64,000 nucleotides of DNA. Source: a virus. The stretch lies in IMG/VR virus record IMGVR_UViG_3300031746_000001; one strand, given 5' to 3'. The translations under genes were made by a program, and so were the position numbers. The notes under the pieces are model-generated. The model was not told where the DNA came from. It searched no databases and saw only the letters and a list, made by a program, of their open reading frames with translations. Below, piece after piece: positions 672 to 64,000 of this stretch (its first letter is position 1; each line of letters starts with the position of its first letter).

Positions 672-1228
672 TCGGCCACCTTCTCTAAGATGCGCTCGAC
701 TTTATAACCCAGGACGGACCGGCAGACCTCAATGGCCTGAGAGAATACCTTCTTGGCATTCTCATCCTTCTGCGTCTGGACCTCCATCTTCTCCCCCAGG
801 TAAAAACTGGCGATCAGAAGGAAGCTCTCAACGGCGAGCTGGTAGGCGTCATCGTCGGTCGCCACGAACTCCATGCTCTGATGCTCCCGGGAAGGCTCGC
901 AGTCGACCGGAAGGATCGTCCGGGGAAAGCAGAACGCTTCCCAGGGATCGACGCCGACCTTCTTCTGCTCGGCTACGGCGACCCCTCCGTCCACTCCTCC
1001 ATCCCATCCCCCGACCATAATCTTCCGGGGCTTGCTCGTAAATTCGCACTGCCTCGAGAAGCAGACACCGTCCATCCCGATCTTGGCGTTCCCCACGCCA
1101 TGCTCTCCGGCGAGCTTCACGCCCTCCCCTGCAAGCCGGGGCATGAGCTTCCGGAAGTCCCCCGTGATACTGCCATAGGCTTTCATCCCGATCACCATAG
1201 GCCTTTCCCAGCGGGTGAGGTACTTCAT
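668..1228 (-). CDS. hypothetical phage protein
   Basis: ATGA overlap with HNH ORF; globular composition. Confidence 0.65.
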   Translation of the reverse strand: MKYLTRWERPMVIGMKAYGSITGDFRKLMPRLAGEGVKLAGEHGVGNAKIGMDGVCFSRQCEFTSKPRKIMVGGWDGGVDGGVAVAEQKKVGVDPWEAFCFPRTILPVDCEPSREHQSMEFVATDDDAYQLAVESFLLIASFYLGEKMEVQTQKDENAKKVFSQAIEVCRSVLGYKVERILEKVAE

Positions 1229-1821
1229 CGTCCCGCCCCCCCTTCTCGCACCCAGGGGGCTTTTCTGCCCTCCTGGGAGGCATCCAGGGAGGTATCCGGG
1301 CTACCCGGTATCCCCCTGGATGGCCATGTCGTCATTATTGCCTTCCAATCTCGAAGAACCTGTTGAGACGTTTCCATTCTTTTTGCCCTCATAGTATTTC
1401 CGTTGTTTATAGTTTGAAGGTCGAAAAAAATCTTCTGACCATTCGGCAAGACCTTCCAGACCTCTGCGCCCTTACGTATATTACATTTCAGGCAGAGAGG
1501 TTGAATATTTTCTATAAAGTTACTTCCATGCTTTATCAGTGGAATAATATGGTCTACCGTAAGTTTAATTTCTGGTTCACTCTCACCACAAACAGGACAA
1601 CGATAGCCATATATAACCTTCAATAACTTCCACTCTCTCAGAGTAAACGTTCCTTCGCTGGCATATTCCCGAGCCCTACGCGCCTGTTCATAAATCCTAA
1701 CTCTTTCGGGATTCTTCTCGCGCCACCTTCGGTGCCACTTATTAATCTTATCCCTATTTTCTCTAACCCACCTTCGGTCGCTTTCTTGGGTCTTATTAAG
1801 CGCGATGGTTCGTCCCCTCAT
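1225..1821 (-). CDS. HNH endonuclease
   Basis: CPVCG...TVDHIIP...GSNFIENIQPLCLKCNIRK; core is AT-rich relative to flanks. Confidence 0.85.
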   Translation of the reverse strand: MRGRTIALNKTQESDRRWVRENRDKINKWHRRWREKNPERVRIYEQARRAREYASEGTFTLREWKLLKVIYGYRCPVCGESEPEIKLTVDHIIPLIKHGSNFIENIQPLCLKCNIRKGAEVWKVLPNGQKIFFDLQTINNGNTMRAKRMETSQQVLRDWKAIMTTWPSRGIPGSPDTSLDASQEGRKAPWVREGGAGR

Positions 1822-8234: not shown

Positions 8235-8381
8235 TCATCCAAGCCTCCCTCTTCTTCGATCATTCTTCCCGAACACCACCACGCAGGACGGGAACGGAGC
8301 CCGCTTCCTCTTGTTGTCGTTGAAGCAGAGCCGGCCCTTGATAAACCTGATCTCCTGAGCCTTCATGACGTACCGATGCCA
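8235..8381 (-). pseudogene. displaced original 3-prime end of the Dam-type methyltransferase gene
   Basis: Translates WHRYVMKAQEIRFIKGRLCFNDNKRKRAPFPSCVVVFGK..., paralogous to the C-terminus of 8838..9248. Confidence 0.85.
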
Positions 8382-8815
8382 CGCTTTGCTTCCCTTAGCC
8401 TAAGATAAAACCGTCTCCTACGCAACACCAATTTTGGATCGGTTCTATTCCGACCACCTCGAGCCAAGGGAAGCTTCATAAAATTCAAAGCAATATCTGC
8501 CTCCTTCGCCTTCGTTCGTAAATATGGCCTTAAAATTAAAAGAACATTTTTTGCGTCTTGGCTCGAGCAAACCCATGACCATCCCGGATTCCATCTCTCA
8601 TTTCTCGGACTATACTTCCCAACATGACCCACTCCAAATTTCTTCCACGCATATTTAACCACTCGCTCATCACACATCGACAATTTAGTAATCAAGGAAT
8701 AAAGATCACTTACATGTCCTCCACGGCCATTAGATCTGTTAAAGCGAATATGTATACACCCCTCCCCGTCAAACAGACCAGCTAAATAAGCCTTTTCCAT
8801 CTCCGTCATTTTCAT
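8363..8815 (-). CDS. LAGLIDADG homing endonuclease (single motif)
   Basis: AYLAGLFDGEGCI; LRPYLRTK; AT-rich. Confidence 0.9.
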   Translation of the reverse strand: MKMTEMEKAYLAGLFDGEGCIHIRFNRSNGRGGHVSDLYSLITKLSMCDERVVKYAWKKFGVGHVGKYSPRNERWNPGWSWVCSSQDAKNVLLILRPYLRTKAKEADIALNFMKLPLARGGRNRTDPKLVLRRRRFYLRLREAKRGIGTS

Positions 8816-8837
8816 CTTTCCTTAGTTAGTGATGCCA

Positions 8838-9248
8838 CTATTGTAACACATCACTACGTCCAAATACAACTACCATTGATGGGAATGGAGCTCTTCCCTT
8901 TGCGTCATTAAATCTAAGCCTTCCCTTGATAAATATTATCTCCCTGGCGTGATGTAAAATATAACGGTGAAACCATATCGTATCCGTCCTCGAGGGCAGG
9001 AGCATCACCACGAGCTTCCCGGCCTGGCCCTCCTGGTACGCCCTTGCGATCCACTTCCCGATCTCCTTGCCGTAGGGAGGGTTGACGTAGGTCCGGGATC
9101 CCCACGGCCGCTCCAAGCCTCCCGTTCCGTGCAGAGGGCAGGGATCGTCGTTGAAGCTGAACCGAGCGTCGAGCTCGCTATAGATCAACGCCGGGGTCGC
9201 CCAATGCGTGGTCGTCGTGCGGGACGTGTGCATGGCCTTCATGATCAT
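8838..9248 (-). CDS. phage DNA N6-adenine methyltransferase (Dam-type)
   Basis: WATP, DPC, VNPPYG, LLPSRTDT.WFH, GRLRF, APFPS. Confidence 0.9.
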   Translation of the reverse strand: MIMKAMHTSRTTTTHWATPALIYSELDARFSFNDDPCPLHGTGGLERPWGSRTYVNPPYGKEIGKWIARAYQEGQAGKLVVMLLPSRTDTIWFHRYILHHAREIIFIKGRLRFNDAKGRAPFPSMVVVFGRSDVLQ

Positions 9249-10362: not shown

Positions 10363-10693
10363 GTATGGATTCCTCCAATTCCTGTTTCTTGACAAAGTAT
10401 TCTTCCGGCGACAGAAGCTTCAAGGCCGACGGCTCCTTCTTCCAGATCTCGTTAAAGTCATCCTCCGAAAGCCTCCACAGAAGCGGAGACCTGTGACCGG
10501 AGCAGTCCAGCTTCTTTTCCTTCGAGATGAAATGCCTCACTGCAACGGCGTCCGCCTCATCGTCGGTATCCCCGAACATGGAGAACTTCACTTCGACACG
10601 TTCCCACTTCCGGCCCCTTGAATCGGCGCTCGTAACCCCGATCACATGGCCCCAGAGATTATGGCAGAGCACATAAGCCGTAAGATAAACCAT
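10352..10693 (-). CDS. hypothetical protein
   Basis: GAGGAG SD. Confidence 0.55.
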   Translation of the reverse strand: MVYLTAYVLCHNLWGHVIGVTSADSRGRKWERVEVKFSMFGDTDDEADAVAVRHFISKEKKLDCSGHRSPLLWRLSEDDFNEIWKKEPSALKLLSPEEYFVKKQELEESIHGR

Positions 10694-10701
10694 GTCTCCT
10701 C

Positions 10702-10926
10702 CTATAAAGACCCGATCACCCCGAAGGCTTCCTCCCGAAAAATTTCCACCTGATCATACCAGAATAACTTTTCCGAGGGGTAGTTATCGAGCTTGATCCA
10801 GACGAGCCCGGATTCTGCCTGATCGGTAACGTATCCTAATTCCCCCAGAAACTTCACATCTCGTTCCCCATTAACTCTCACAATCCGAACCCGTGGGCGT
10901 CGATCAAAGTGATTTCCGAATATCAT
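10702..10926 (-). CDS. SH3-like small protein with FGVxGxL tail
   Basis: RVRIV...GELGYV...VWIKLD; ends EEAFGVIGSL. Confidence 0.7.
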   Translation of the reverse strand: MIFGNHFDRRPRVRIVRVNGERDVKFLGELGYVTDQAESGLVWIKLDNYPSEKLFWYDQVEIFREEAFGVIGSL

Positions 10927-11189
10927 ATCTCGCCCTCCACTCCGAAGGGCTTCTCCTCTTCCTTCTCGAGCTGAACCTCCTCGAGGTATCTTCCAGCCCC
11001 CTTCTTGGCTTTCCCCGAGCAGTCGTGCAGGCCGAGAGACTCCTTGTCCATCTGGACCCCGTAGAGAAAATCGCTGGCCTTAACTTCCACGATCGTCCCG
11101 GCCTCATTGAGCAACCCTTCTTCTTCCTGCGTATGCTCCCAAGTCACCCTGACCCGCTGGCCGACCTTGAACTTCGGCTTCGAACTCAC
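10923..11189 (-). CDS. SH3-like small protein with FGVxGxI tail
   Basis: FKVGQRVRV...GTIVEV...YGVQMD...LHDCSG; GTG start overlaps upstream TGA; ends EEEKPFGVEGEI. Confidence 0.75.
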   Translation of the reverse strand: MSSKPKFKVGQRVRVTWEHTQEEEGLLNEAGTIVEVKASDFLYGVQMDKESLGLHDCSGKAKKGAGRYLEEVQLEKEEEKPFGVEGEI

Positions 11190-12602: not shown

Positions 12603-12680
12603 TTGGGGTTAGATCGCATGGCAGGACTTTGGACCTGCCTCGTGCCTTAAGTGCGGGGATGACCCCGCACCCCATCGGCT
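12603..12680 (-). ncRNA. putative structured leader RNA, copy A
   Basis: GTGCGGGG/CCCCGCAC and GCAGG/CCTGC stems then AACCCCAA; shared with copy B. Confidence 0.5.
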
Positions 12681-13365: not shown

Positions 13366-13487
13366 TTGGGGTTCGCCTGCAGGTTACTTGGGATATCCTG
13401 CGTGGCCTTAGTGCGGGGGTGGACTCTGCGTCATGGTGTCGGATACGCACACCGTCTTGCGAGGTCGCACCCCGCACCCCTCGGCTC
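13366..13487 (-). ncRNA. putative structured leader RNA, copy B
   Basis: Same two stems and AACCCCAA as copy A, with an expanded loop. Confidence 0.5.
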
Positions 13488-13913
13488 TCAGGCTACGACA
13501 ACCGTCCCCTGAATGGCCTTGACCTTGAGCTTCTTCCCGGCCTTGACCTTGAGCTCCGGCTTCTCGCTGTGACTCGTCGAAGCCGCCAGGGAAGTGGTCA
13601 GGATGATCTGCGTGGCCTCGTTGACCTTCGTGAGGGCGAGCTCGAAGGCGTCCTTATACTTGGGCGTATCCCGTGGCGTGATCGATGCCACGATCGTGAC
13701 CTCACCAACCGCCACTTCCTGGTTGGGATAGGCCATTACCTGATGGACGGTCTCGCCCCGGAACCCCTCTTCGATTTCTCCGAGCCGCTTCAGTTCGGCG
13801 TTCAGATTGCTGATGTTGGCTTTCACGGTCATCCACTCCTTGAGCGATGCCCTCAAATTGCCCTCAGCCTGAACGGGCGGCTGAATGTTGATACCGACAT
13901 CGTTCTGCTTCAT
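13488..13913 (-). CDS. hypothetical protein with N-terminal coiled coil
   Basis: Start after AAGGAG. Confidence 0.6.
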   Translation of the reverse strand: MKQNDVGINIQPPVQAEGNLRASLKEWMTVKANISNLNAELKRLGEIEEGFRGETVHQVMAYPNQEVAVGEVTIVASITPRDTPKYKDAFELALTKVNEATQIILTTSLAASTSHSEKPELKVKAGKKLKVKAIQGTVVVA

Positions 13914-14725: not shown

Positions 14726-15050
14726 TCACAAGCCCCCCACGACGCCGAACGGTGCGTCATCATCGGTAGGGACGGGCGATTGGGCATCCGGCCTTCGAGC
14801 TCGCACCGTAGGCCGGGGTGTAGGCCGACGCTCCGTCCTTTCCATCTCCCTCCGTAGGGACGTGCAGGGACGGATATCCCCGACCACGTGCCAGAAGCCC
14901 CGGGCATCATGCCTTGAGATCGTCCACCTCGTAACGAGCGCCTTCCGTCCGGAGGCCGTTCGGGAACTGAACCCAGCCATCCCTGCCCTGCGGTCGCACC
15001 CGCAGTTTCCGTTTCGACGGATCGTAGACGACTTCTAAGATTACGCTCAT
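14726..15050 (-). pseudogene. frameshifted small beta-barrel gene with FGVxGxL tail
   Basis: MSVILEV...KLRVR...VQFP...GARYEVDDLK stops at 14907; the +1 frame continues HDARGFWHVVGDIRP...DDDAPFGVVGGL. Confidence 0.55.
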
Positions 15051-15054
15051 GGCA

Positions 15055-17099: not shown

Positions 17100-18161
17100 T
17101 TACGCGCCCTTATAGGCGTTCTTCAGGATGGCGTCGAGGGCATCCGGACCGTCGTCCACGATCTTCGTGGCCATCGCGAAGCCCCTCGCTTTGAGGTCCG
17201 AGCCCGTCCCGAACAGGATGCGCTCGAGGCGTCCCTCTCCCCCGCCCCTGCGGGTGTCCTGGTAGTCGACGAACTCCGTCACGCCGTTCAGGGCTCCCCA
17301 CAGCGACCCTCTGACACCAGGGATGTTCGATCCCCGGCCTTCGTTCGAGAGCCTCAGCATCTCGTTCCGGATGAAGGCGTTGCGATCGTTGCGCCGGATT
17401 TCGTCCGGGCTCACAGCCTTCGGATCGTCCAGAACGACGGCCTTGAAGTAATTCACGGCCCGCTCGTTGTTCATGGGAACCTTGGCGGTCTCCCTAATGA
17501 GCTCTTCGATCTGATCGTAGGACTTCCGCACGATGCCCATCAGATCGGCCACCTTGTCGAGGTTGACGGCCACGTCCGGGAAGTGCCGAACCTTGTAGGC
17601 CTTCTTCCCGTCCCCCGTCGCCATCTGCAGAGTGTTCTGACAGACGACCCGGATCGGGGTGAACTTCACGCCGACCGAGCTGGACCCGTCGTGGGTGTTG
17701 TAGAGAAGGAGGTACTTGTCGACCACGTCCCCCTTGAGAACCCGGATGCTGTCCGGAAGCTTAACCAGAACCCAGATACGCTCGCCCTGGCCCAGGGCCC
17801 CGGCTGTGTGGTAGATCGCCTGACCCTCCCCCACGATGTTGTCGAAGAAGCCGAAGGCTTCCGTGTTCTGAAGCGGGGTATACTGCTTCCCCACCACGCC
17901 CAGGACGACCCGCCTCTCCCCGTCCTCACGAACGGTCGCGAACTTGTCCGGGACCTGAAGAGCGTTGTGCTCCCCGTTCTCGTCGTGCATGGCCATCAGC
18001 TCATACTTCTTGACTGGCCAGTCGAGCCCTGCGGCTGTGATGGCCTCTTTGGACGTGGCCGGGCCGTTCAGCTGAGTCCCCAGACCGTGCCAGGGGCTCT
18101 CTGAATGCCAAAAGAGAGCGTGTCCCTTCCCGTCCGACCTTTGCATCAAGTTATGCGACAT
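17100..18161 (-). CDS. DUF932/DUF945 phage-plasmid protein
   Basis: PWHGLG, AAGLDW, YTPLQN, TAGAL, NTHDGS, PIRVVCQNT, WGALNGVTE. Confidence 0.9.
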   Translation of the reverse strand: MSHNLMQRSDGKGHALFWHSESPWHGLGTQLNGPATSKEAITAAGLDWPVKKYELMAMHDENGEHNALQVPDKFATVREDGERRVVLGVVGKQYTPLQNTEAFGFFDNIVGEGQAIYHTAGALGQGERIWVLVKLPDSIRVLKGDVVDKYLLLYNTHDGSSSVGVKFTPIRVVCQNTLQMATGDGKKAYKVRHFPDVAVNLDKVADLMGIVRKSYDQIEELIRETAKVPMNNERAVNYFKAVVLDDPKAVSPDEIRRNDRNAFIRNEMLRLSNEGRGSNIPGVRGSLWGALNGVTEFVDYQDTRRGGGEGRLERILFGTGSDLKARGFAMATKIVDDGPDALDAILKNAYKGA

Positions 18162-18741
18162 GACTTCCTCCTTTGATTAACGGTTCTTTTAAATTCCCGT
18201 GCGGGCAGTATCCGAAGTGTGCGATTGCCATGTTGCAATTCCAGCACAGAATCCGAAACTTATCCTCCGGAAATCCCTGCCTTTTGATGTCGAGATAGAC
18301 CTTTTGACTTCCCCTGCCTTTTAGAATCTTCCGGTGAACGTTGCCGCCGCCGCCGATGTGATCGACCGTAAGGAACTCTTCTCGGCGCTCACCACAGCAC
18401 TTGCACTTTCCACCCAGAGCCTGCAACACTTCCAATTTGAGCCTTCGCTGACTATTCCGACCCCACCTCCTGGAATTTTCTAAACCCTTCTCGGTTTTCC
18501 TGTAGACATCTCTCTTGTAAATCGTGCTCTCCCTCTTATCGCAAGCCTTACACCAGCCACTCCATCCATCGGCTCGGGTTGCTGAATGGTAGAACTCGCT
18601 CCGGCCCGGTTCGGTAGACTTAAACTTACGACATCGAGGACACCTCTTCATCTTGCCCCTTAAAGTCGAAGCCCCCTCATCCGGTTGCTCAGGCGAAAAG
18701 GCGGCTCTCCGTCTGCGGACTTGGGGGCTCGTGATAATCAT
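18151..18741 (-). CDS. HNH-type endonuclease with N-terminal Zn finger (true start probably MKRCPRC)
   Basis: CPRC...WCKAC; CKCCG...LTVDH...ILCWNCN. Confidence 0.8.
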   Translation of the reverse strand: MIITSPQVRRRRAAFSPEQPDEGASTLRGKMKRCPRCRKFKSTEPGRSEFYHSATRADGWSGWCKACDKRESTIYKRDVYRKTEKGLENSRRWGRNSQRRLKLEVLQALGGKCKCCGERREEFLTVDHIGGGGNVHRKILKGRGSQKVYLDIKRQGFPEDKFRILCWNCNMAIAHFGYCPHGNLKEPLIKGGSHVA

Positions 18742-18773
18742 TCAAAAGCCTTTAAGCTCTGAGCAACACAGTG

Positions 18774-18803
18774 ATTGTAGCTTAAATCGGGAAAGGAAGT
18801 CAA
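18774..18803 (-). promoter_or_regulatory. promoter at the 5-prime edge of the HNH cassette (TTGACT-18-TACAAT)
   Basis: The -35 contains the TGA that truncates the orphan DUF932 N-terminus. Confidence 0.5.
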
Positions 18804-18868
18804 GCGGTCCCGAACCAGAACATGCTGTGCCCTTTTCCGTCCGCTCTCTCCATCAGATTGTGTGACAT
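18800..18868 (-). pseudogene. orphaned original 5-prime end of the DUF932 gene
   Basis: MSHNLMERADGKGHSMFWFGTA-stop versus MSHNLMQRSDGKGHALFWHSES in 17100..18161; has its own SD. Confidence 0.85.
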
Positions 18869-18907
18869 TTCCGCTTCTCCTTTTGAATTGGGGTTAACGA
18901 CGATACA

Positions 18908-19237
18908 TCAATTAACAAAATCTTCCCAGCGGAGCCCGCTGAGATTTGAACTCCCGCCCTCGCCCGGCAACTTCACCTTCAATGCCGTCGCCCATGAGTA
19001 GACCCAGCCCAGAACCATAGGATAGTCAGCCTGCTCATTCATGACCCTCACGCAGAGGGTATGAGCCGGGCACTTCGAGCATCGATCACCCTCCGGGAAA
19101 ACCCTCTGAACCTCTGCACAGAAACTGGCCGGAAGAGTCTCCTCCACTCCTCGAGGAATCCAAATTTGGAACCCCTCTCTGTCCAACGCCCTCCGCCAGT
19201 TTTCCTTCGTCCAGCCTTCAGGCCACACCTGACTCAT
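18908..19237 (-). CDS. hypothetical protein
   Basis: First gene after P5, GAGGAGG SD. Confidence 0.6.
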   Translation of the reverse strand: MSQVWPEGWTKENWRRALDREGFQIWIPRGVEETLPASFCAEVQRVFPEGDRCSKCPAHTLCVRVMNEQADYPMVLGWVYSWATALKVKLPGEGGSSNLSGLRWEDFVN

Positions 19238-19288: not shown

Positions 19289-19317
19289 ATTATACCTATT
19301 CCCAGATTGCAAGTCAA
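19289..19317 (-). promoter_or_regulatory. sigma70 promoter P5 (TTGACT-17-TATAAT)
   Basis: Near consensus; downstream GGTATCGT shared with P4. Confidence 0.85.
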
Positions 19318-19464: not shown

Positions 19465-20391
19465 CTACAGGGGAATGAGAGGGACTAAAGCGTCATAAAC
19501 TATATCTACAGTGAGCGACGCCATGCAGGGCCTGCTCGGGCATTGAAACGCATCGAGATAATACCCTTCGGGCCGACAGCAGTGCAAATTGTCACAGCTC
19601 CCCGGGATCCACAGGTTCGTATTCATGGCGTGGCCGGAGATGTGGGGGTTGCTTCTTCCGAAGAGAACGACCCCCGGTTTCCCGACGGCGGGCCCTCCGT
19701 GCCCGATGAAGGATTCGACCGTGACGTAGGACGAGCAGAAGCGAAGGATCGAAAGGGTCTGCCGGATCTTGAGGCCCCCGCAAAGGTTGGCGGTTACCCC
19801 GGGCACACAGGTCTCCCCGTTGCCCCCAATTTGGAGGACGGCGACACCCGCCTCCCGGAGCCGTTTTGTGAGGGCTACCCAGCGATCGTGGAACCAGTCC
19901 TTGTTGGGCGTCCCCTTCTTCCCGGTGAGAGGAATGTTAGCGGCCGCACTGTTGATCAGGACGACCTTCTCGCCAAAACCCTTCATAAAATTCATGCCCC
20001 AAGTGAGCTCGGACGGGCGGAGGAAAACCTCAAGTTCGTCATTGTCCCAGGGAAGCCCGCAGATCTCCGACCAAGCCTTAGATTGGAGCCCGTCGTAGAC
20101 ATGATTCCAGCGCCGGGTGTAGAGGTCGGCCCGGATGGTTTTTCGGGAATCTTTCTGTGGGATTACCCAGTCCTCATAGAACTCCCGAGCATCCTCCGCA
20201 GAGATGTGAAAGAGCTTGTCGATGTTCGGATTGCCCTGAAGGGCTTCCCAGTAGCATGCCGAGACGATGATGTGGTGATCCGGGTAGGCCTTCTTGGTCG
20301 CCCGGAGCATCGGGGTGACGCAGATGTGATCCCCGATGCCCCCGTCGATTACGAGGGTGAACCAGTTAGATGGCCGGGGGGTTTGTTCCAT
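19465..20391 (-). CDS. GT9 (heptosyltransferase-like) glycosyltransferase
   Basis: GGIGDHIC.TP, GNPNID, KDW..RW, ES..GH, VVLFG. Confidence 0.8.
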   Translation of the reverse strand: MEQTPRPSNWFTLVIDGGIGDHICVTPMLRATKKAYPDHHIIVSACYWEALQGNPNIDKLFHISAEDAREFYEDWVIPQKDSRKTIRADLYTRRWNHVYDGLQSKAWSEICGLPWDNDELEVFLRPSELTWGMNFMKGFGEKVVLINSAAANIPLTGKKGTPNKDWFHDRWVALTKRLREAGVAVLQIGGNGETCVPGVTANLCGGLKIRQTLSILRFCSSYVTVESFIGHGGPAVGKPGVVLFGRSNPHISGHAMNTNLWIPGSCDNLHCCRPEGYYLDAFQCPSRPCMASLTVDIVYDALVPLIPL

Positions 20392-20506
20392 CGAGCTCCC
20401 TTTTCTCGAACTCGGAAAGTATAGCACGACATTTCGGACACAACTCCAAACTCATATTTGAGGAGTCTGCGTCACAGAGATTACAGAGCCGGGGGGTTCG
20501 TTCCAT
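20366..20506 (-). CDS. 46-aa CxxC/CxxC mini-protein between 26-bp direct repeats
   Basis: MERTPRLCNLC...CPKC...ELDGTNPPAI. Confidence 0.4.
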   Translation of the reverse strand: MERTPRLCNLCDADSSNMSLELCPKCRAILSEFEKRELDGTNPPAI

Positions 20507-21374
20507 CGAGCTCTGCCATCCTGCGGTCGAATAACTGTTGGTCGGCAATCCAGTAGCTCTCGGGGTTAGGGACGCCTTTGGTCACCCGGATGCCGCCCTC
20601 GAGGGAAGCATAATGCCAGGCGATCGCCCGGGGCTGGACCAGGAGGGTATAGCCCTTCTTGAACATGTGGTAGGTGAGATCGGTCTCCCAGCGGTGGCCT
20701 GCGGGGGAATAATCGAGGCATATCCCTCCGGAGGCATCCACGGCGGATCCCGAGACGAGGAAGCAGGAGTTAATGTGCTCGGCCTCCTTGAGATTGACGT
20801 CCGGGGAGAGGATCTGGTGGAGAAGAGGGGTTAAGGGCCTTATCTTCCCCTGAAAGAGGTTCACGGACGCCCAGTTATTCGGGGCAGTCTGGCTCTCGAT
20901 GGTCATCCGGGGTAAGAGATAGACCCCTCCCACGCCCCCCAGCATCTTCCCTGGACCCAGGATTTGCTCGCACTGCACAAAAGGAACGACCATCCACTGA
21001 AGGTAATTCGGAAAGAGCACGAAGTCGTCGTCGATGTTGGCCACGAGCTCATGGCGTCGGTTAACGAACCCCGCATAGAAGGCGGCATGGGGCCCCCTCT
21101 TCGGCCCCCAGATCACCCGCCAGTTATGCCCCTGGTGGTTGAGCTGATCGAGAATATTGCATGTCGGGAAGGCCTCGCTGATCGGCCTTGCCCCTTCGGT
21201 GTCGTCCACGACGGTCAAATCCCAGTTCCCGTAGTTCTGAGCGAGCAGGGAGGACAAAAGCATGCACAGGTTGGTGTACCGCTCCTTCGTGGTGACCACG
21301 ACTTCGATCCGGTAGCGGGCTTCGTAGGTGTCGAACAGCGGGTTGAACTCGGTTATCAGATAATCAGGTAGCAT
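20481..21374 (-). CDS. GT2 family glycosyltransferase
   Basis: VVDD, NIDDD, ETDL motifs. Confidence 0.8.
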   Translation of the reverse strand: MLPDYLITEFNPLFDTYEARYRIEVVVTTKERYTNLCMLLSSLLAQNYGNWDLTVVDDTEGARPISEAFPTCNILDQLNHQGHNWRVIWGPKRGPHAAFYAGFVNRRHELVANIDDDFVLFPNYLQWMVVPFVQCEQILGPGKMLGGVGGVYLLPRMTIESQTAPNNWASVNLFQGKIRPLTPLLHQILSPDVNLKEAEHINSCFLVSGSAVDASGGICLDYSPAGHRWETDLTYHMFKKGYTLLVQPRAIAWHYASLEGGIRVTKGVPNPESYWIADQQLFDRRMAELDGTNPPAL

Positions 21375-33111: not shown

Positions 33112-36100
33112 TTAGAGATATTCAACCAAAATCGTTCCATTCCAGTTCTCATTACGCTTGTCAGAAAATGAATAAGTGGTCGAAAAGACCGATTGCACGG
33201 AACCATTCTTGTGAACTTCAAGAACGGTATCCGACATCCCGACATAATTGATATAACAAGATATTTCATCCCCCTCAACAAAGTAGACGGGAGCGACATT
33301 CTTTATCGCTGTCGTTTCCCCGGTAGTAGACCCCCTGAACTGGCATCCGATAATCCTACCCGGAGAAAGCATCTGAACTGAATACTGATTTCCCACTTCA
33401 GTTCCGGCAGAGAAGTATCTACTTGACACACTCGCCGCAGTTCCAAGAGATAAGTGGTCTATGTTCTTTAGACCGTGTGCTCCAACAACCCCAATCCAAT
33501 CAAAGCTGATTCCTACGACAGTATCGCCCGAGAACACATGAACAGGCAACCAGACATTCGCTGGAATATGAGTCGTATGCGAAGCAACCAACTGACCATT
33601 GACATATAGACGACAGACATTTGGGTCCCATTGAATTTCAATCAGATTCCAAGTTCTGGCCGGGATAGCAACGGCTGTCTGTGTTACCGTCCCGTCGTAA
33701 GTTTCAAAGTTTCCGTCGTTATACCGGACATAATAGGATCCGCCGGAATCCCAAAAACCAACAGCGTTTCTGAACACACCAGACCTATCATAATCATCCT
33801 TAACGAACATAGACAATCTACCATACAGCCATGTTCTCTTCGTATACATCTCGCCATAAGAACCTCCGGCGTTCAGAATACTTATCATACTGGACGCAAC
33901 AGAATAGGTTGCACTTGCACCAACCTTAGTCCAGACATTCGTATCAAGGGCATTACCATCAAAATGGTCGATAAAACCCGGAAATCCTTCATAACTAATT
34001 ACCGGAGTTTCTATCGGAGCAATTTCAGAGAACTCAATGTCTGGATGTAGTCTTGTAGCAATATTATCAAGCAACACACCATAATACCCACCCATCGCAG
34101 TAGCATAGGCGGCAGTCGTTCCCCTCCAATAAAATTTCCCGTCACAATAAACATCGAACACATTAACTTTACTTCCGAGACTATTATACAAATAAACTTC
34201 AAGAGTATGCCATTCCCCTGTAGTCAATGTGACTGTAAAGACGCCATCTGTCAAACTACCATAACTTCCGGCATTATCATATCCTACCGTTAGATTAGCT
34301 CCCGACCCTGTGTAATACCAGAATAATCCATGAGCGGTAGCATGATTAAGAGCATCAAACCCAAAACATATCCCGTAGTTATCCGTAGAAGCATTCGGCT
34401 TGAACTTCATCCGAATACGAAGTCCACCGGATGCATTTGCATTGAGAGGAGCCTGACAAAGATAGAATCTTTCACCGGCTGTTCTCGCTACAGGAGCATA
34501 CCATCCGGCAGTATCACTTACCAGATACTCCGCATTTGTGTAGTTTCTATACAAAGCAGGAGAAGGATAACCACTATATCCCGACGCCCCACTGGCACCA
34601 GAGGCCCCTGAGGCGCCTGAAGCACCAGAAAGTCCAGATGCCCCCGTGAACCCACTGAATCCGGAGTACCCTGATAGGCCACTTGCCCCGCTAGCTCCAC
34701 TGGCGCCTGAAGCTCCTCCTGCTCCGGACAGCCCGCTGAAGCCGGATCGTCCGCTGTATCCTGAGTACCCCGACTGACCACTAGCGCCTGAAGCTCCTCC
34801 TGCTCCGGACAGCCCGGAGGCACCCGTGAATCCCGAGAAGCCAGAATATCCAGAGAGTCCGGAAGCTCCACTTGCTCCCGAAAGTCCGGATGCGCCAGTA
34901 GCCCCGGTAAATCCAGAGAAGCCGGAGTAACCTGAAAGACCAGACGCCCCGCTGGCGCCACTCGCTCCGCTGGCTCCCGAAAGCCCTGTAAATCCCGAGA
35001 ACCCGGAATATCCACTTAGACCTGAAGCACCAGACGCACCGCTCGCGCCGGAAGCCCCGCTGAGTCCTGTGAACCCACTGAAACCCGAGTAGCCGCTTAG
35101 TCCGGATGCACCACTTGCGCCTGAAAGTCCCGAAGCCCCTGAAGCTCCGGACAGGCCACTGGCTCCGGTGAAGCCGGAGAAACCCGAGTAACCGGAGAGG
35201 CCAGATGCCCCAGACGCTCCACTAGCCCCACTCGCTCCTGACAAGCCCGTGAACCCGCTGAAGCCGGAGTAACCCGATTGGCCACTAGCTCCGCTCGCCC
35301 CACTAGCCCCGCTGAGACCTGATGCCCCAGTAAATCCCGAAAAGCCGCTATAACCTGACAGTCCACTTGCCCCGGACGCGCCGGAAAGTCCGCTGGCCCC
35401 ACTGGCTCCCGTAAATCCGCTGAAACCTGAGTAGCCACTTTGTCCGGAGGCTCCCGACGCTCCGCTGGCACCGGAAAGACCGGAAGCTCCGCTGGCACCG
35501 GAAAACCCGCTGAGACCGCTATACCCAGACTGACCGGATGCTCCGCTCGCACCACTGGCTCCGCTAAGACCCGAGGCTCCGGACAGCCCTGTGAAGCCGG
35601 AAAATCCCGAGTAGCCGGAAAGTCCAGACGCCCCACTGGCACCGCTGAGCCCAGAGGCTCCCGAAGCTCCGGTGAAACCAGAGAATCCAGAGTACCCGCT
35701 CTGACCGCTGGCTCCACTCGCTCCCGAAGCCCCACTGAGTCCGGAAGCACCAGTGAAGCCAGAAAATCCGGAATATCCGGATTGTCCGCTGGCCCCGCTT
35801 GCTCCCGATGCCCCACTAAGCCCAGAGGCGCCGGTAAAACCACTGAACCCGGAGTACCCGCTTAATCCGCTGGCTCCCGATGCTCCTGAGAGTCCCGATG
35901 CTCCCGATGCGCCTGAGGCGCCAGAGAGTCCAGAAAAGCCAGAGAGTCCGCTATAGCCTGATTGTCCAACAGCCCCGGACGCTCCGCTCGCGCCGGACGC
36001 TCCCGAGAGTCCGGTAAAGCCGCTGAAGCCCGAGTAACCGGATTGGCCGCTGGCGCCGGATGCTCCCGAGGCTCCTGAGAGGCCACTAGCCCCAGTGAAT

Positions 36101-39100
36101 CCCGAAAAGCCTGAGTATCCACTTTGACCGGAAGCTCCGGAAGCACCGGAGGCGCCGGAAAGTCCCGAAGCCCCCGTAAATCCACTGAATCCGCTATACC
36201 CGCTCTGTCCGCTAGCTCCGGAAGCACCACTGGCACCAGAGGCTCCTGAAAGTCCGGAAGCTCCACTAAGCCCTGTGAAGCCGCTGAATCCGGAATAACC
36301 CGATAGACCAGAGGCCCCAGAAGCTCCGCTGGCACCACTAGCTCCGGATGCCCCAGTGAACCCACTGAACCCGGAGTAACCACTGAGGCCGCTGGCACCT
36401 AAAGCTCCACTTGCTCCACTTGCCCCGCTAAGTCCGCTAAACCCGCTGAAGCCGGAGTAGCCGCTTTGACCAGACGCCCCGCTGGCGCCAGAAGTTCCGC
36501 TAAGACCGGAAGCCCCGGTAAATCCCGAGAATCCGGAATACCCGCTGAGCCCGCTGGCTCCACTAAGGCCGCTGGCACCGGAAGCTCCTGAAGCCCCGAC
36601 AGCTCCCGAGAATCCGGAGAGCCCGGAATAACCAGACTGTCCCGAGGCGCCGGAAGTTCCGCTAAGCCCCGACGCTCCCGAAGCTCCGGTAAAGCCCGAG
36701 AAGCCAGAATATCCCGACTGCCCACTCGCTCCGCTGGCGCCGGACGCTCCACTGAGACCACTTTGTCCCGTGAAGCCAGAGAATCCTGAATAACCACTCT
36801 GTCCGCTGGCCCCACTGGCTCCGGAGGCGCCACTCGTTCCAGATAACCCCGAAAATCCGCTGTAACCACTTTGTCCGGAAGCTCCACTTGCTCCGGACGC
36901 ACCAGACGCTCCAACCGCCCCGCTGAATCCGCTAAGACCGCTGTAGCCTGAGAGTCCAGAGGCACCCGAAGATCCACTCGCACCTGAGGCTCCGGACGCT
37001 CCGGATGCTCCGGTGAAACCAGAGAATCCAGAGTACCCGCTCTGACCGCTGGCTCCAGATGCTCCACTCGCACCAGAAAGACCTGATTGCCCGATCGCAC
37101 CGCTGAACCCACTAAATCCTGAATAACCAGACGCGCCTGAAAGTCCCACCGCTCCAGAAAGACCACTGATACCTGAGTACCCACTTTGTCCACTCTCTCC
37201 CGAGGCCCCCGATGCTCCTGAAGTTCCGCTGAGTCCCGATGCTCCGGTGAATCCGGAGAATCCGGAGTAGCCCGATAGTCCCGATGCTCCGGATGCGCCG
37301 GAGGCCCCTGAGGCGCCTGAAGCACCAGTGAAACCAGAAAACCCGCTGTAGCCACTTTGTCCAGATGCCCCAGACGCGCCTGAAGCACCCGAAGCGCCAG
37401 AAAGACCTGTAAAGCCCGAGAACCCGGAATAACCGGACTGTCCGGACGCCCCGCTCGCTCCCGATAGACCAGACGCACCGCTTAGTCCACTGGCCCCGGA
37501 CAAACCCGTGAAGCCTGAAAAACCAGAATATCCGGACTGCCCTGAAGCACCAGACGCACCGCTCGCGCCTGACGCTCCGGATAGGCCGGAAAATCCTGAG
37601 AAGCCCGAATAACCCGACTGACCGCTGGCACCCGAAGCTCCACTGGCTCCCGAAAGACCCGAGGCTCCCGAAGCCCCGGATTGTCCCGTGAACCCACTGA
37701 AACCAGAATAACCGGACTGACCGGATGATCCTACGAAGGACTCTCCGGAAAACCCGCTAAGACCTGAGTAACCAGACTGGCCGGATGCGCCGGAAGCCCC
37801 GCTGGCTCCTGAAGATCCACTGGCACCTGTGAATCCGGAAAATCCGCTATAACCGGATTGACCGCTAGCTCCCGAGGTTCCCGAGGCGCCGGACGCTCCC
37901 GAGGCTCCACTCAGCCCGGAGAATCCGCTGAACCCTGAATATCCTGATTGACCGCTTGCCCCGCTTGCTCCGGAAGCTCCTCCGGCGCCGGAGGCTCCCG
38001 TGAAACCTGAGAAACCGCTGTAGCCGGATGCTCCCGATGTTCCCGACGCACCTGACGCGCCAGAAAGTCCAGAAAGTCCCGAGTAGCCCGACTGGCCAGA
38101 AGCACCCGAAAGACCACTAGCTCCGGATGCCCCTTCTGCTCCGGATTGTCCGCTGAATCCGGAGAAACCAGAGTAACCAGAAGCACCTGAAGTTCCAGAT
38201 GCTCCTGAGGCTCCTGAAGCTCCGCTAGCACCCGAGAGCCCGGTGAATCCAGAGAACCCAGAATACCCAGACTGACCGCTGGCCCCAGATGCACCAGATG
38301 CTCCTGAAGTCCCAGATAGTCCACTGAGACCTGAGAGACCGCTGTAGCCTGATTGTCCCGATGCACCCGAAGTTCCACTTGCACCTGACGCCCCGGATTC
38401 TCCGCTGAACCCGCTGAATCCGGAATACCCCGACTGTCCTGATTGGCCTGATGCACCACTCGCTCCACTCTGCCCTGATGCTCCTGTGAACCCGGAAAAC
38501 CCGCTGTAACCCGATTGTCCCGAGGCTCCGCTGGTCCCGGAGGCACCAGACGCCCCGGACTCCCCCGTGAACCCCGAGAACCCCGAGTATCCCGACTGGC
38601 CGGAGGCTCCACTGGCACCCGATGCTCCGGATAGGCCGGAAGCCCCAGTAAAGCCGGAAAAGCCGGAATACCCGCTCTGCCCACTCGCGCCTGACGTTCC
38701 TGACCCCCCAGAAGCCCCAGAAAGGCCACTCTGGCCTGAGAACCCGCTGGCTCCCGAGTAACCGGACTCCCCTGACGTCCCGGATGCACCTGAGGCCCCT
38801 GAGGCGCCTGACAGGCCGGAGGCCCCGGACTCCCCCGAGAATCCTGAGAACCCGCTGTAACCGCTGGCCCCCGATACCCCCGTAGCCTCCCCACTGAACC
38901 CCGAGAATCCCGAGTAACCCGACGCTCCACTGGGCCCCGACCCTCCCGATTCTCCGCTGTAACCAGAAAGGCCGGAATAACCGGACGCTCCGGTCCCTCC
39001 CGCCCCACTGAAGGTGATCGTCTGGCCGTCCTGGGTAACGTCGACACCGCTATACCCCTGAAAGAGAACATTCCCGGTTGCGGGAGGAGGCGCAATAGGA

Positions 39101-62244: not shown

Positions 62245-64000
62245 TTAGCGGAAGCTCTTCGCCCAGTCCTTGTCGACGTAACCCCACTCGAGAAGCTTCT
62301 GCCCCTCGGCGATCGTGCGGGCTCCGATATCGTAGCGGTAGAAGCCGTCCGGGATCCATATCTTCCGGGCGCTGTCGTTCATGTCCTGCATGGCCTGGGA
62401 GATCGTCTGCCCCTGTCCCGTGATGCAGACCGTCCGGCCATAGTCCGGGAGGGCGATATACTTACCATCCTCCTTGACCACCCCGAAGAAGCCGACCCGG
62501 GCCCCTTCCTCAATCGCCTTGTCTATGCCGTAGACGATCGACCAGTCACCGCCCCGGGCCTTCATGACCTCCGTGTAGGGGTAGCCGTTCACGCACCAGC
62601 ACGTCCCGATCGCCCAGCGGTGCTTCAAGATATCCCACTTCGGCCTGTACCGTGGATCCAGAAGGGTCCCGTAGGCGATCCCCGAGAGCACCTCCCCGAA
62701 GCGTTTGTGGAGCGTCATCTGAATCATGTAGACCGGATAGCCGAATCTGCAATTGCCAGAGAAAAACGCCTTCCCGTTTCTTCTCACCAGCATTGCGTGA
62801 TAATCCTCCACCTCTACATCCCAAACCTTACCTGTATAGTGCTCTCGACCCATCACGCGCTTGTCCACAGAATAATCAAGTTTCTTCTCTCGAACGCTCA
62901 GAGAATAACCATCACTCCTTCGAGTATAGCCGCCAATGCCTACCGTTCCCTTAACCTTGCAAGGCTTGATATTTGCCACTCGACCCGTCTTAAATAGCAC
63001 CTCCTGGAAATCATCCGCCAGAAGTTTTGAAGTCGTATAGAGACTCAGTTGGCCATTCCTCTTATGCCAGCATCCATCGCCAAGGGCAAAGCCATGAACC
63101 AGGGCTTCTAAAAGCCGAGGTGAAAAGTTCTTAAAAGCTAAGGGGATCGTCTTAAATGAAGCTGTCTTATCTAACCCGAGGGATTCGAGAAAACCACATA
63201 GTTGCCGAGAATTGATTTGATAATGACCGCCATTCTTCTGGACCGAAAAATCAAATCCAAAGTTCTTCAATATCTCCTCGATCTCGCCCCTCCTCTTGGA
63301 ACCCCAGCTTTGGGATATGGTCAGGTGATATTTCTTCCCGTTCTTTCTCCGTCCCCCAAAACATCCCTCCGACAGATACAATCCCAAAAACTGCATAAAG
63401 ACATGGGTATCAAGCTTCCGGGCTGGATGAACGAGGTATATCTTTTTCTTGGACTTTCCAAGACAATGTTCTTCAATATACTCGGGAATTTCAATATACC
63501 TTTTGTCAGTCCCAAACCACGACCCGCTCCGGACTATAGACCAATTCCACTCCGGCATCTCCCCAGCCTTGACAATCTTATTCTTCCCGCTCTTGGTAAT
63601 CAATAAATTATGGTCAGGAGTGACCAGAATATCCAAAGCCTTGTTCCCGATCCTTACCATCTCGCCATCATAGTCCCGCACCCGCTTACCCACAATTTTC
63701 TTCCACTCTATCTCCCGGCTTTGGGGATTGATAGCTAAGGCCATATCTCCAACCACAACCTCCGTATACTTCAGCCAGCCCCGTTGGGTCAGGATTTCGG
63801 TCTTCTCGTCGAAACAGGTGAACTCAATGACGTGCGTCCCGCTCTCGTTGGCGATGCAGGAGACCTCCACGTAGCCCCGGTAGCCGACCATCCGCAGGAA
63901 GGGCTCAATCTTCTGTAGGGTCTCCGCAAACGCCTTCCCTCCGGTGTCATCGTAATACATTGCCGTTCCGATCTCCGAGTTCATCGGCCCGAGATCCCCG
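62245..64000 (-). CDS. second PurD-like ATP-grasp ligase, intein-containing, 5-prime truncated by the window edge
   Basis: GDLGPMNSEIG, IEFT|CRFGYP, YRYDIG; paralogous to 54246..55571. Confidence 0.85.
   Translation of the reverse strand, partial: GDLGPMNSEIGTAMYYDDTGGKAFAETLQKIEPFLRMVGYRGYVEVSCIANESGTHVIEFTCFDEKTEILTQRGWLKYTEVVVGDMALAINPQSREIEWKKIVGKRVRDYDGEMVRIGNKALDILVTPDHNLLITKSGKNKIVKAGEMPEWNWSIVRSGSWFGTDKRYIEIPEYIEEHCLGKSKKKIYLVHPARKLDTHVFMQFLGLYLSEGCFGGRRKNGKKYHLTISQSWGSKRRGEIEEILKNFGFDFSVQKNGGHYQINSRQLCGFLESLGLDKTASFKTIPLAFKNFSPRLLEALVHGFALGDGCWHKRNGQLSLYTTSKLLADDFQEVLFKTGRVANIKPCKVKGTVGIGGYTRRSDGYSLSVREKKLDYSVDKRVMGREHYTGKVWDVEVEDYHAMLVRRNGKAFFSGNCRFGYPVYMIQMTLHKRFGEVLSGIAYGTLLDPRYRPKWDILKHRWAIGTCWCVNGYPYTEVMKARGGDWSIVYGIDKAIEEGARVGFFGVVKEDGKYIALPDYGRTVCITGQGQTISQAMQDMNDSARKIWIPDGFYRYDIGARTIAEGQKLLEWGYVDKDWAKSFR
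62752..63816 (-). mobile_element. intein with LAGLIDADG homing endonuclease (355 aa)
   Basis: Starts CFDEKTEILT..GW; block B VTPDH; LGLYLSEG and GFALGDG motifs; ends SGN followed by Cys+1. Confidence 0.92.

Follow-up and report, generated by a model that had tools for sequence, protein, structure and literature searches.

The DUF932 gene of an uncultured phage of ~160 kb carries, close to its start, what we regard (at a probability of roughly 85%) as a free-standing homing-endonuclease cassette targeting the W-F-G-E-S-P-W-H-G codons of that gene. The inserted DNA contains a predicted promoter, a pseudoknot-type leader, the gene for a 166-aa zinc-finger HNH protein and 22 substitute codons for the beginning of DUF932, while the first codons of the native gene are left behind as an orphan open-reading frame. 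The DNA analysed, a stretch of 64,000 nucleotides referred to here as the window, is 100% identical to part of a 159,907-bp metagenome contig, and every gene discussed in it lies on the minus strand. G001 (IMG/VR), a complete related phage of 160,139 bp with direct terminal repeats, was used as the reference genome for comparisons. It is syntenic with the window, mostly 80-95% identical across it, and encodes no relative of the cassette HNH, serving as the HNH-free sister phage. The coordinates of the features are collected in Table 1.

Table 1 Features of the DUF932 cassette and of related loci in the window and in G001
Feature	Position	Strand	Remarks
Native DUF932 leader	18869..18909	-	Outside the cassette; AACCCCAA box at 18895-18888, then SD
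Orphan ORF	18868..18800	-	22 codons, behind AACCCCAA box and SD
Orphaned native DUF932 codons 1-20	18809..18868	-	Putative left homology arm
Inserted cassette	18096..18808	-	713 bp in place of 6 bp (codons 21-22) of the empty allele
Cassette promoter TTGACT-18-TACAAT	18774..18803	-	Predicted; -35 box from 18803, -10 at 18774
Structured leader	18652..18767	-	From predicted +1
HNH (beta-beta-alpha-metal) endonuclease	18151..18651	-	166 aa
SD of restarted DUF932 (AAGGAGG)	18167..18173	-	Inside HNH coding end; read from sequence
DUF932 ORF	18161..17100	-	353 aa; PF06067, E 5.5e-53
Replacement 5' end, codons 1-22	18096..18161	-	
Native DUF932/TIGR03299 body from PWHGLG	17100..18095	-	
Dam gene with replacement 3' end	8235..9248	-	Pfam; LAGLIDADG gene 8815..8363, displaced native 3' end 8382..8235
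G001 Endo VII/DHHRN cassette	L100:10267-11140		Replaces first 33 codons of GT4 glycosyltransferase
G001 PD-(D/E)XK (PF11645) intergenic cassette	L106:15126-15866 = G001 135126-135866		Gene at 135294
Third 5'-replacement candidate, G001	L101:15900-17080 = G001 35900-37080		11-codon orphan at 35900, 239-aa gene, restart

The empty allele and the insertion boundaries

In G001, DUF932 is one gene with one start, running from the leader through the orphan's codons 1-20 to Glu-Ser, PWHGLG and the gene body, and the native junction of this empty allele reads ...F-W-F-G-E-S-P-W-H-G. An earlier reading of the window, made from the sequence only, had described an orphan ORF with the native leader and SD upstream of the HNH gene, and the orphan lies where that reading put it. 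Its leader is identical at 40/41 nt to that of the intact gene in L001 (1/41 differs), its codons 1-20 match the G001 allele at 59/60 nt, and its GC3 is 0.75 compared with 0.86 in the gene body. Against the empty allele, which is represented by one independent genome (L001 and L095 apparently represent one phage), the orphan differs at 1/60 nt, the gene body at ~3% (3/99 and 28/834) and the replacement end at 25/66 (41/66 match, with 16/22 residues the same), indicating that the orphan is the native start and that the working start is cargo.

Alignment with G001 gave a gap of ~714 nt against 7 nt at the cassette site, and the GC content of the cassette (0.51) is below that of the gene body (0.63). 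The break had been placed exactly before PWHGLG, which is correct for the right junction alone; the left junction lies two codons before PWHG, after Gly20, and the Thr-Ala-stop that ends the orphan is cassette DNA. The rejoined site also needed revision, since the empty allele reads FGES-PWHG and not FGT-PWHG as proposed. Between these close relatives the cassette is present or absent at a precise site, as is typical of homing elements, and in the occupied allele neither half of the junction matches the empty site, with the insertion falling among conserved codons. PWHxLG is the most conserved motif of the family and occurs in 116/119 homologs.

The comparison with G001 also bears on whether the second N-terminus came from an independent tandem duplication of the gene start, with the HNH gene filling in later. 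The lineage does have other small end duplications with no nuclease (window about 20400-20510), but the HNH-free relative has one start, and the orphan, the copy expected to decay, is 98% identical to the native start while the functional copy is 62% identical. An HNH-free relative whose single N-terminus is the orphan's, and not both N-termini, indicates insertion with a replacement 5' end, and we consider independent duplication barely credible.

Under homing, the HNH would nick or cut the intact junction of an empty allele during mixed infection, and repair would copy in the 713 bp, with the native leader and orphan acting as the left arm and the gene body as the right. The occupied allele would be immune because neither half rebuilds the site, and DUF932 would stay functional with the promoter, SD and working N-terminus supplied by the cassette. 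Since the DUF932 SD and start overlap the end of the HNH gene, loss of the HNH would be costly. The replacement end would be old cassette cargo, drifted to synonymous saturation under protein-level selection, and the orphan would be the recipient's own recent start, while the promoter and pseudoknot leader would form a portable unit, holding translation of the nuclease in check and shared by unrelated nucleases of the lineage. The exact HNH protein was found on 10 contigs, in all 10 located before DUF932; the genes upstream of it are arranged in two ways, one as in G001. The two arrangements fit recent movement of the cassette, and could also be the product of flanking recombination.

The replacement gene start and the HNH nuclease

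The restarted gene is a DUF932/TIGR03299 member by a wide margin (180 bits against a cut-off of 23; TIGR03299 243 against 110.7). As the sequence-only reading had it, the orphan and the replacement end agree at 14 of their first 18 residues, with a local alignment score of 91 compared with at most 49 in shuffles. The replacement end keeps the conserved H-N-L start found in 86/104 homologs, suggesting that the N-terminus is needed. The same reading had described the replacement end as recoded. Most synonymous positions do differ (10/13 degenerate codons for shared residues), but saturation predicts 8.3, selection for synonymous escape is not significant (P 0.24, and 0.24-0.35 across tests), and the overlap with the HNH stop places a further constraint on codons 3-4. 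The changes cluster at the junction, at codons 19 and 20 and in a TCG-to-AGC change at Ser22. The safe reading is that the replacement would be an old diverged copy under protein-level selection, although its selection to escape the nuclease is plausible.

No lineage emerged as donor of the replacement end, the next DUF932 lineage being 56% identical with a different N-terminus, and a JGI scan for close DUF932 relatives gave no match. DUF932 has no solved relative, fold searches gave no clear match, and its N-terminus is poorly modelled (pLDDT 46-62). A second divergent patch is present in the window at 17950-18000 (minus strand; DUF932 codons ~55-72), where sequence and length differ from G001. 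This patch corresponds to a loop that varies among family members.

Judging from the starts of its homologs, the likeliest start of the HNH gene is 18651 (166 aa), preceded by an SD-like AAGGGG, and 18741 (196 aa) is the less likely one. In the protein, an N-terminal zinc ribbon is followed by a long helix and, at the C-terminus, a zinc-bound nuclease domain; residues D97, H98, N138 and N140 are intact, and C83, C86, D97, H98, C136 and C139 are invariant columns. Its predicted model has a pLDDT of 92, and Foldseek gave weak matches, nearly all of them HNH domains. Matches to the PHROG endonuclease VII and HNH families (E about 4e-12) place it in a homing-type family. It falls outside DHHRN (F-CphI/Endo VII), having D-H-I-G instead of D-H-x-H and 13.5 bits with PF02945 against a cut-off of 23.6. 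Its own family is uncharacterised and very large, with over 24,000 representatives at 1e-10; with the predicted target narrowed to about 30 bp through the empty allele, the specificity of this family is directly testable.

At 11 HNH-homolog loci, scanned for ORFs of at least 100 aa, no flanking duplicated gene ends were found, and the homologs are ordinary free-standing or embedded genes, indicating that end replacement belongs to the window cassette and not to the HNH family. At 80 distant DUF932 loci there was neither an HNH of the window family nor a duplicated start. An apparent duplicated-end match at L005 was rejected because it involves two paralogous methyltransferases. In that locus of another phage (L005:2915-4939), the HNH homolog lies in a different frame within a long DNA-methyltransferase ORF and is possibly an intron or nested insertion.

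Parallel cassettes in the lineage

The window's Dam gene, which had been cited as a parallel case, supports that comparison, since the displaced piece, which follows the LAGLIDADG gene, shares 94.6% identity with the 3' end of Dam as it stands uninterrupted in G001. The synonymous-escape test for Dam was non-significant (P 0.65, a uniform figure only). A reciprocal 5' case was found in G001, where an Endo VII-type gene (10531-11043) lies between a 33-codon orphan and a restarted glycosyltransferase and belongs to the DHHRN family (PF02945, 80 bits). A nuclease-free glycosyltransferase allele from the window's lineage (L136) differs at 15/99 nt from the orphan, in line with 14% in the gene body, and at 27/99 from the replacement, and GC3 is 0.70 in the orphan compared with 0.42 in the replacement. 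Here 24/29 codons differ in the synonymous-escape test, a marginal result (P 0.03-0.06). The two sister phages thus have reciprocal empty and occupied sites.

A third 5'-replacement candidate is also present in G001, where the restarted gene resembles a nucleoside deoxyribosyltransferase and the locus has no promoter or leader. The 239-aa gene between orphan and restart looks Vsr-like by motif and had no Pfam or PHROG match. The proposal of a general gene-end-replacement strategy in the lineage is therefore sustained as far as the lineage goes (Dam at the 3' end, the reciprocal 5' case in G001 and this further candidate), but it is not universal. The G001 PD-(D/E)XK cassette occupies a locus where the window has another HNH gene (1821..1225), and no duplicated gene end was found at that HNH gene or at the PD-(D/E)XK gene.

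The recurrence of this anatomy has to be weighed against a one-off illegitimate recombination, in which the HNH and a DUF932 start would have come from a related phage through homologous exchange on the right and illegitimate joining on the left, the HNH being a passenger or cutting elsewhere (intronless homing from a distance). The lineage-specific residues kept by the replacement and its synonymous saturation are as expected of a sister-genus allele, and free-standing endonucleases of T4 cut hundreds of bases from their own genes (PMC2988022). However, this anatomy recurs in two genomes with nucleases of different families, the right junction coincides with the most conserved motif, and the cassette promoter is common to other nuclease cassettes. 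A single event with a passenger HNH is unlikely as the explanation, though recombination of this kind is also plausible as the cassette's origin under the homing explanation.

At window 20366-20513 a short ORF repeats the last residues of the upstream glycosyltransferase, likewise in G001, with no nuclease. At an E1-like gene (L107:1613-2323 and P0297), the E1 start is overlapped in the window's lineage by a 139-aa Endo VII gene; G001 has no Endo VII gene before E1, and the E1 N-termini differ between the lineages. The G001 DNA-ligase gene and the next small gene have a common 40-residue N-terminal domain (window 14726-15051; L001:7071-8593), and the ligase is missing from the window while present in other contigs of its lineage.

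Promoter, leader RNA and comparison with known systems

The truncating TGA of the orphan (18802-18800) had been assigned to a TTGACT-18-TACAAT promoter, and the sequence bears this out, the stop codon being supplied by the -35 box. Promoter-like sites in the region number 3, with 0.6 expected. Near-identical predicted promoters also lie before a further two nuclease genes, both of G001 (10369 and 135126), and the pattern made from the three matches only those three sites in the 224 kb of both genomes, although it was defined post hoc. A terminator-like hairpin at window 18924-18944 (minus strand), at the end of the upstream gene and not in G001, might lower read-through from a promoter at 19317.

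Both inverted repeats described for the leader are present. The first nine bases of the predicted transcript form the 5' strand of helix 1 (18767-18759 with 18692-18684), and a two-part stem pairs 18730-18723 with 18676-18669 and 18720-18716 with 18683-18679. Because the repeats cross, the predicted fold is a pseudoknot and not a set of nested hairpins. The core has a z of -3.8, and the crossing-helix score was reached by 1, 0 and 0 of 300 shuffles for the window and the two G001 copies, respectively. In the leader of the G001 Endo VII cassette, 22/22 pairs are kept with 1 compensatory and 3 one-sided changes, a covariation that stays within the shuffle control, two sequences being too few for significance. 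The two leaders have long identical blocks, equal promoter spacing and a local alignment score of 48 (at most 26 in 2000 shuffles), with only distant likeness between the nucleases they precede. The G001 PD-(D/E)XK leader has a different sequence with equal crossing topology, so the leader evidence consists of two sequence-similar copies and one topology-only copy.

The leader's 5' strand can pair alternatively with the HNH SD (-7.6 kcal/mol) or with its pseudoknot partner (-13.2), the SD pairing being weaker in the G001 copy (-6.2, with -14.3 for the partner). By analogy with the hairpins of T4 endonuclease genes (PMC2988022), the odds are about even that the leader acts as a translational throttle on the HNH. 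No Rfam match was found for the leader (twister, HDV-like, hammerhead, SAM-I, HEARO/omegaRNA and int-alpA included), and by inspection it lacks the catalytic or ligand-binding positions of known ribozymes and riboswitches. Pattern scans of viral, metagenome and genome collections gave further leader/promoter copies only in G001, the other matches being judged chance because the pseudoknot strand is missing. A sequence-only model of the leader recovered only its two training copies, and GenBank phages gave no match. The leader is a candidate for a new, uncatalogued RNA motif. An I-TevI-like operator copy of the target within it was considered and rejected, as the best match (13/20) was no better than shuffles. 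Elsewhere in the window, a type-P5 twister ribozyme above the Rfam cut-off lies at 12622-12679 (minus strand), just upstream of a AACCCCAA box and SD, and a twister-similar second element with a long insertion (~13366-13490, minus strand) is likewise just upstream of a AACCCCAA box and SD.

A structured RNA directly after the orphan could also belong to a self-splicing intron (or ribosomal bypass) that rejoins orphan and body, leaving the second N-terminus internal to the intron. By inspection, the frame would be kept by one cut behind the last U of the orphan and another behind the G of codon 21, and fungal precedent exists in Tremella introns with N-terminal duplications (PMC7315562). However, Rfam gave no group I or II intron core or ribozyme, whether at the gathering threshold or with E relaxed to 10, structure extends over only about 115 nt, and the product would differ from the empty allele. 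Moreover, the restart has its own strong SD, and a similar leader precedes an intergenic cassette with no orphan (G001 PD-(D/E)XK). Splicing is accordingly very improbable.

More tentatively, and with considerable doubt, the lineage may possess a portable expression module, a distinctive promoter with an undescribed pseudoknot RNA switch, exchanged among HNH, Endo VII-type and PD-(D/E)XK nucleases. Such a module would enable 5'-end invasion, take over transcription of the invaded gene and of the operon downstream of it, and throttle nuclease translation. If this is true, invasive cassettes would be built from three swappable parts, namely the module, the nuclease and a spare gene start.

The principle of gene-end replacement is already known from fungi. 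In mORF hybrids, whose nucleases are of the LAGLIDADG or GIY-YIG type and thus of other families, the replacement is C-terminal, the setting is an organelle and a cassette promoter is unnecessary. The hybrids occur in Allomyces atp6 and in Glomus atp6, atp9, cox2 and nad3, and their native fragments are 91-98% identical to uninvaded relatives and their inserted copies 64-81% (PMC3630166), compared with 98% and 62% in the window. Experiments on Who6 at yeast FBA1 have demonstrated the homing logic (Coughlan et al. 2020, PMC7282813). In the WHO model, the nuclease is accompanied by a resistant gene end, and the fragment displaced by that end provides the second homology arm (PMC7282813). The window cassette follows this pattern, in that a displaced fragment matches the uninvaded allele and a diverged cassette copy keeps the protein. 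As in WHO, a nuclease outside any intron or intein would carry a resistant end of its target gene (resistance here being inferred), with the displaced native fragment as an arm. WHO elements, in contrast, combine an intein-derived LAGLIDADG nuclease with a zinc finger, replace a 3' end of about 400 bp and form tandem clusters in a eukaryote (PMC7282813), whereas the window cassette is a mirror image of that model, with a phage HNH and 22 codons at the 5' end. It would work like WHO and mORF elements but, with neither their 3' end nor a LAGLIDADG-type nuclease, lies outside their families. Because it replaces a 5' end, it must also supply a promoter and SD.

The Tremella 'introns with N-terminal duplication' are likewise mobile inserts with a duplicated piece of host gene and a proposed fragment swap (PMC7315562). 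They differ in being mitochondrial and annotated as introns, with the fragment downstream in several cases (PMC7315562), whereas the window cassette has no intron core. Phage elements of the T4 seg/mob type and intronless homing (PMC2988022), and F-CphI/DHHRN (PMC6083498), are similar in their intron-free nucleases with their own promoters, in RNA structure upstream of the RBS and in host-gene signals embedded in the nuclease gene. Those elements, however, either are intergenic and cut at a distance from their own gene, or divide the host gene so that two polypeptides are made (Aeh1 nrdA, T4 gene 60). Term searches of an endonuclease review (PMC2988022) and an ICP1 survey (PMC10448857) gave no gene-end replacement, and the literature searched, of partial coverage, gave no description of 5'-end replacement in a phage.

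What the present case adds is reciprocal empty and occupied alleles in two sister genomes, together with a common uncatalogued leader. Such cassettes would give the ends of a gene discordant phylogenies, and the orphan mini-ORFs left behind are overlooked in annotation. Homing of this kind would be a natural analogue of engineered home-and-rescue drives, and a third route, besides introns and inteins, by which a selfish nuclease could reside inside a conserved phage gene with the gene not destroyed. Separately, a 1,073-bp insert at window 62745-63818, missing from G001 at the equivalent site, is consistent with an intein in a 579-aa ORF.
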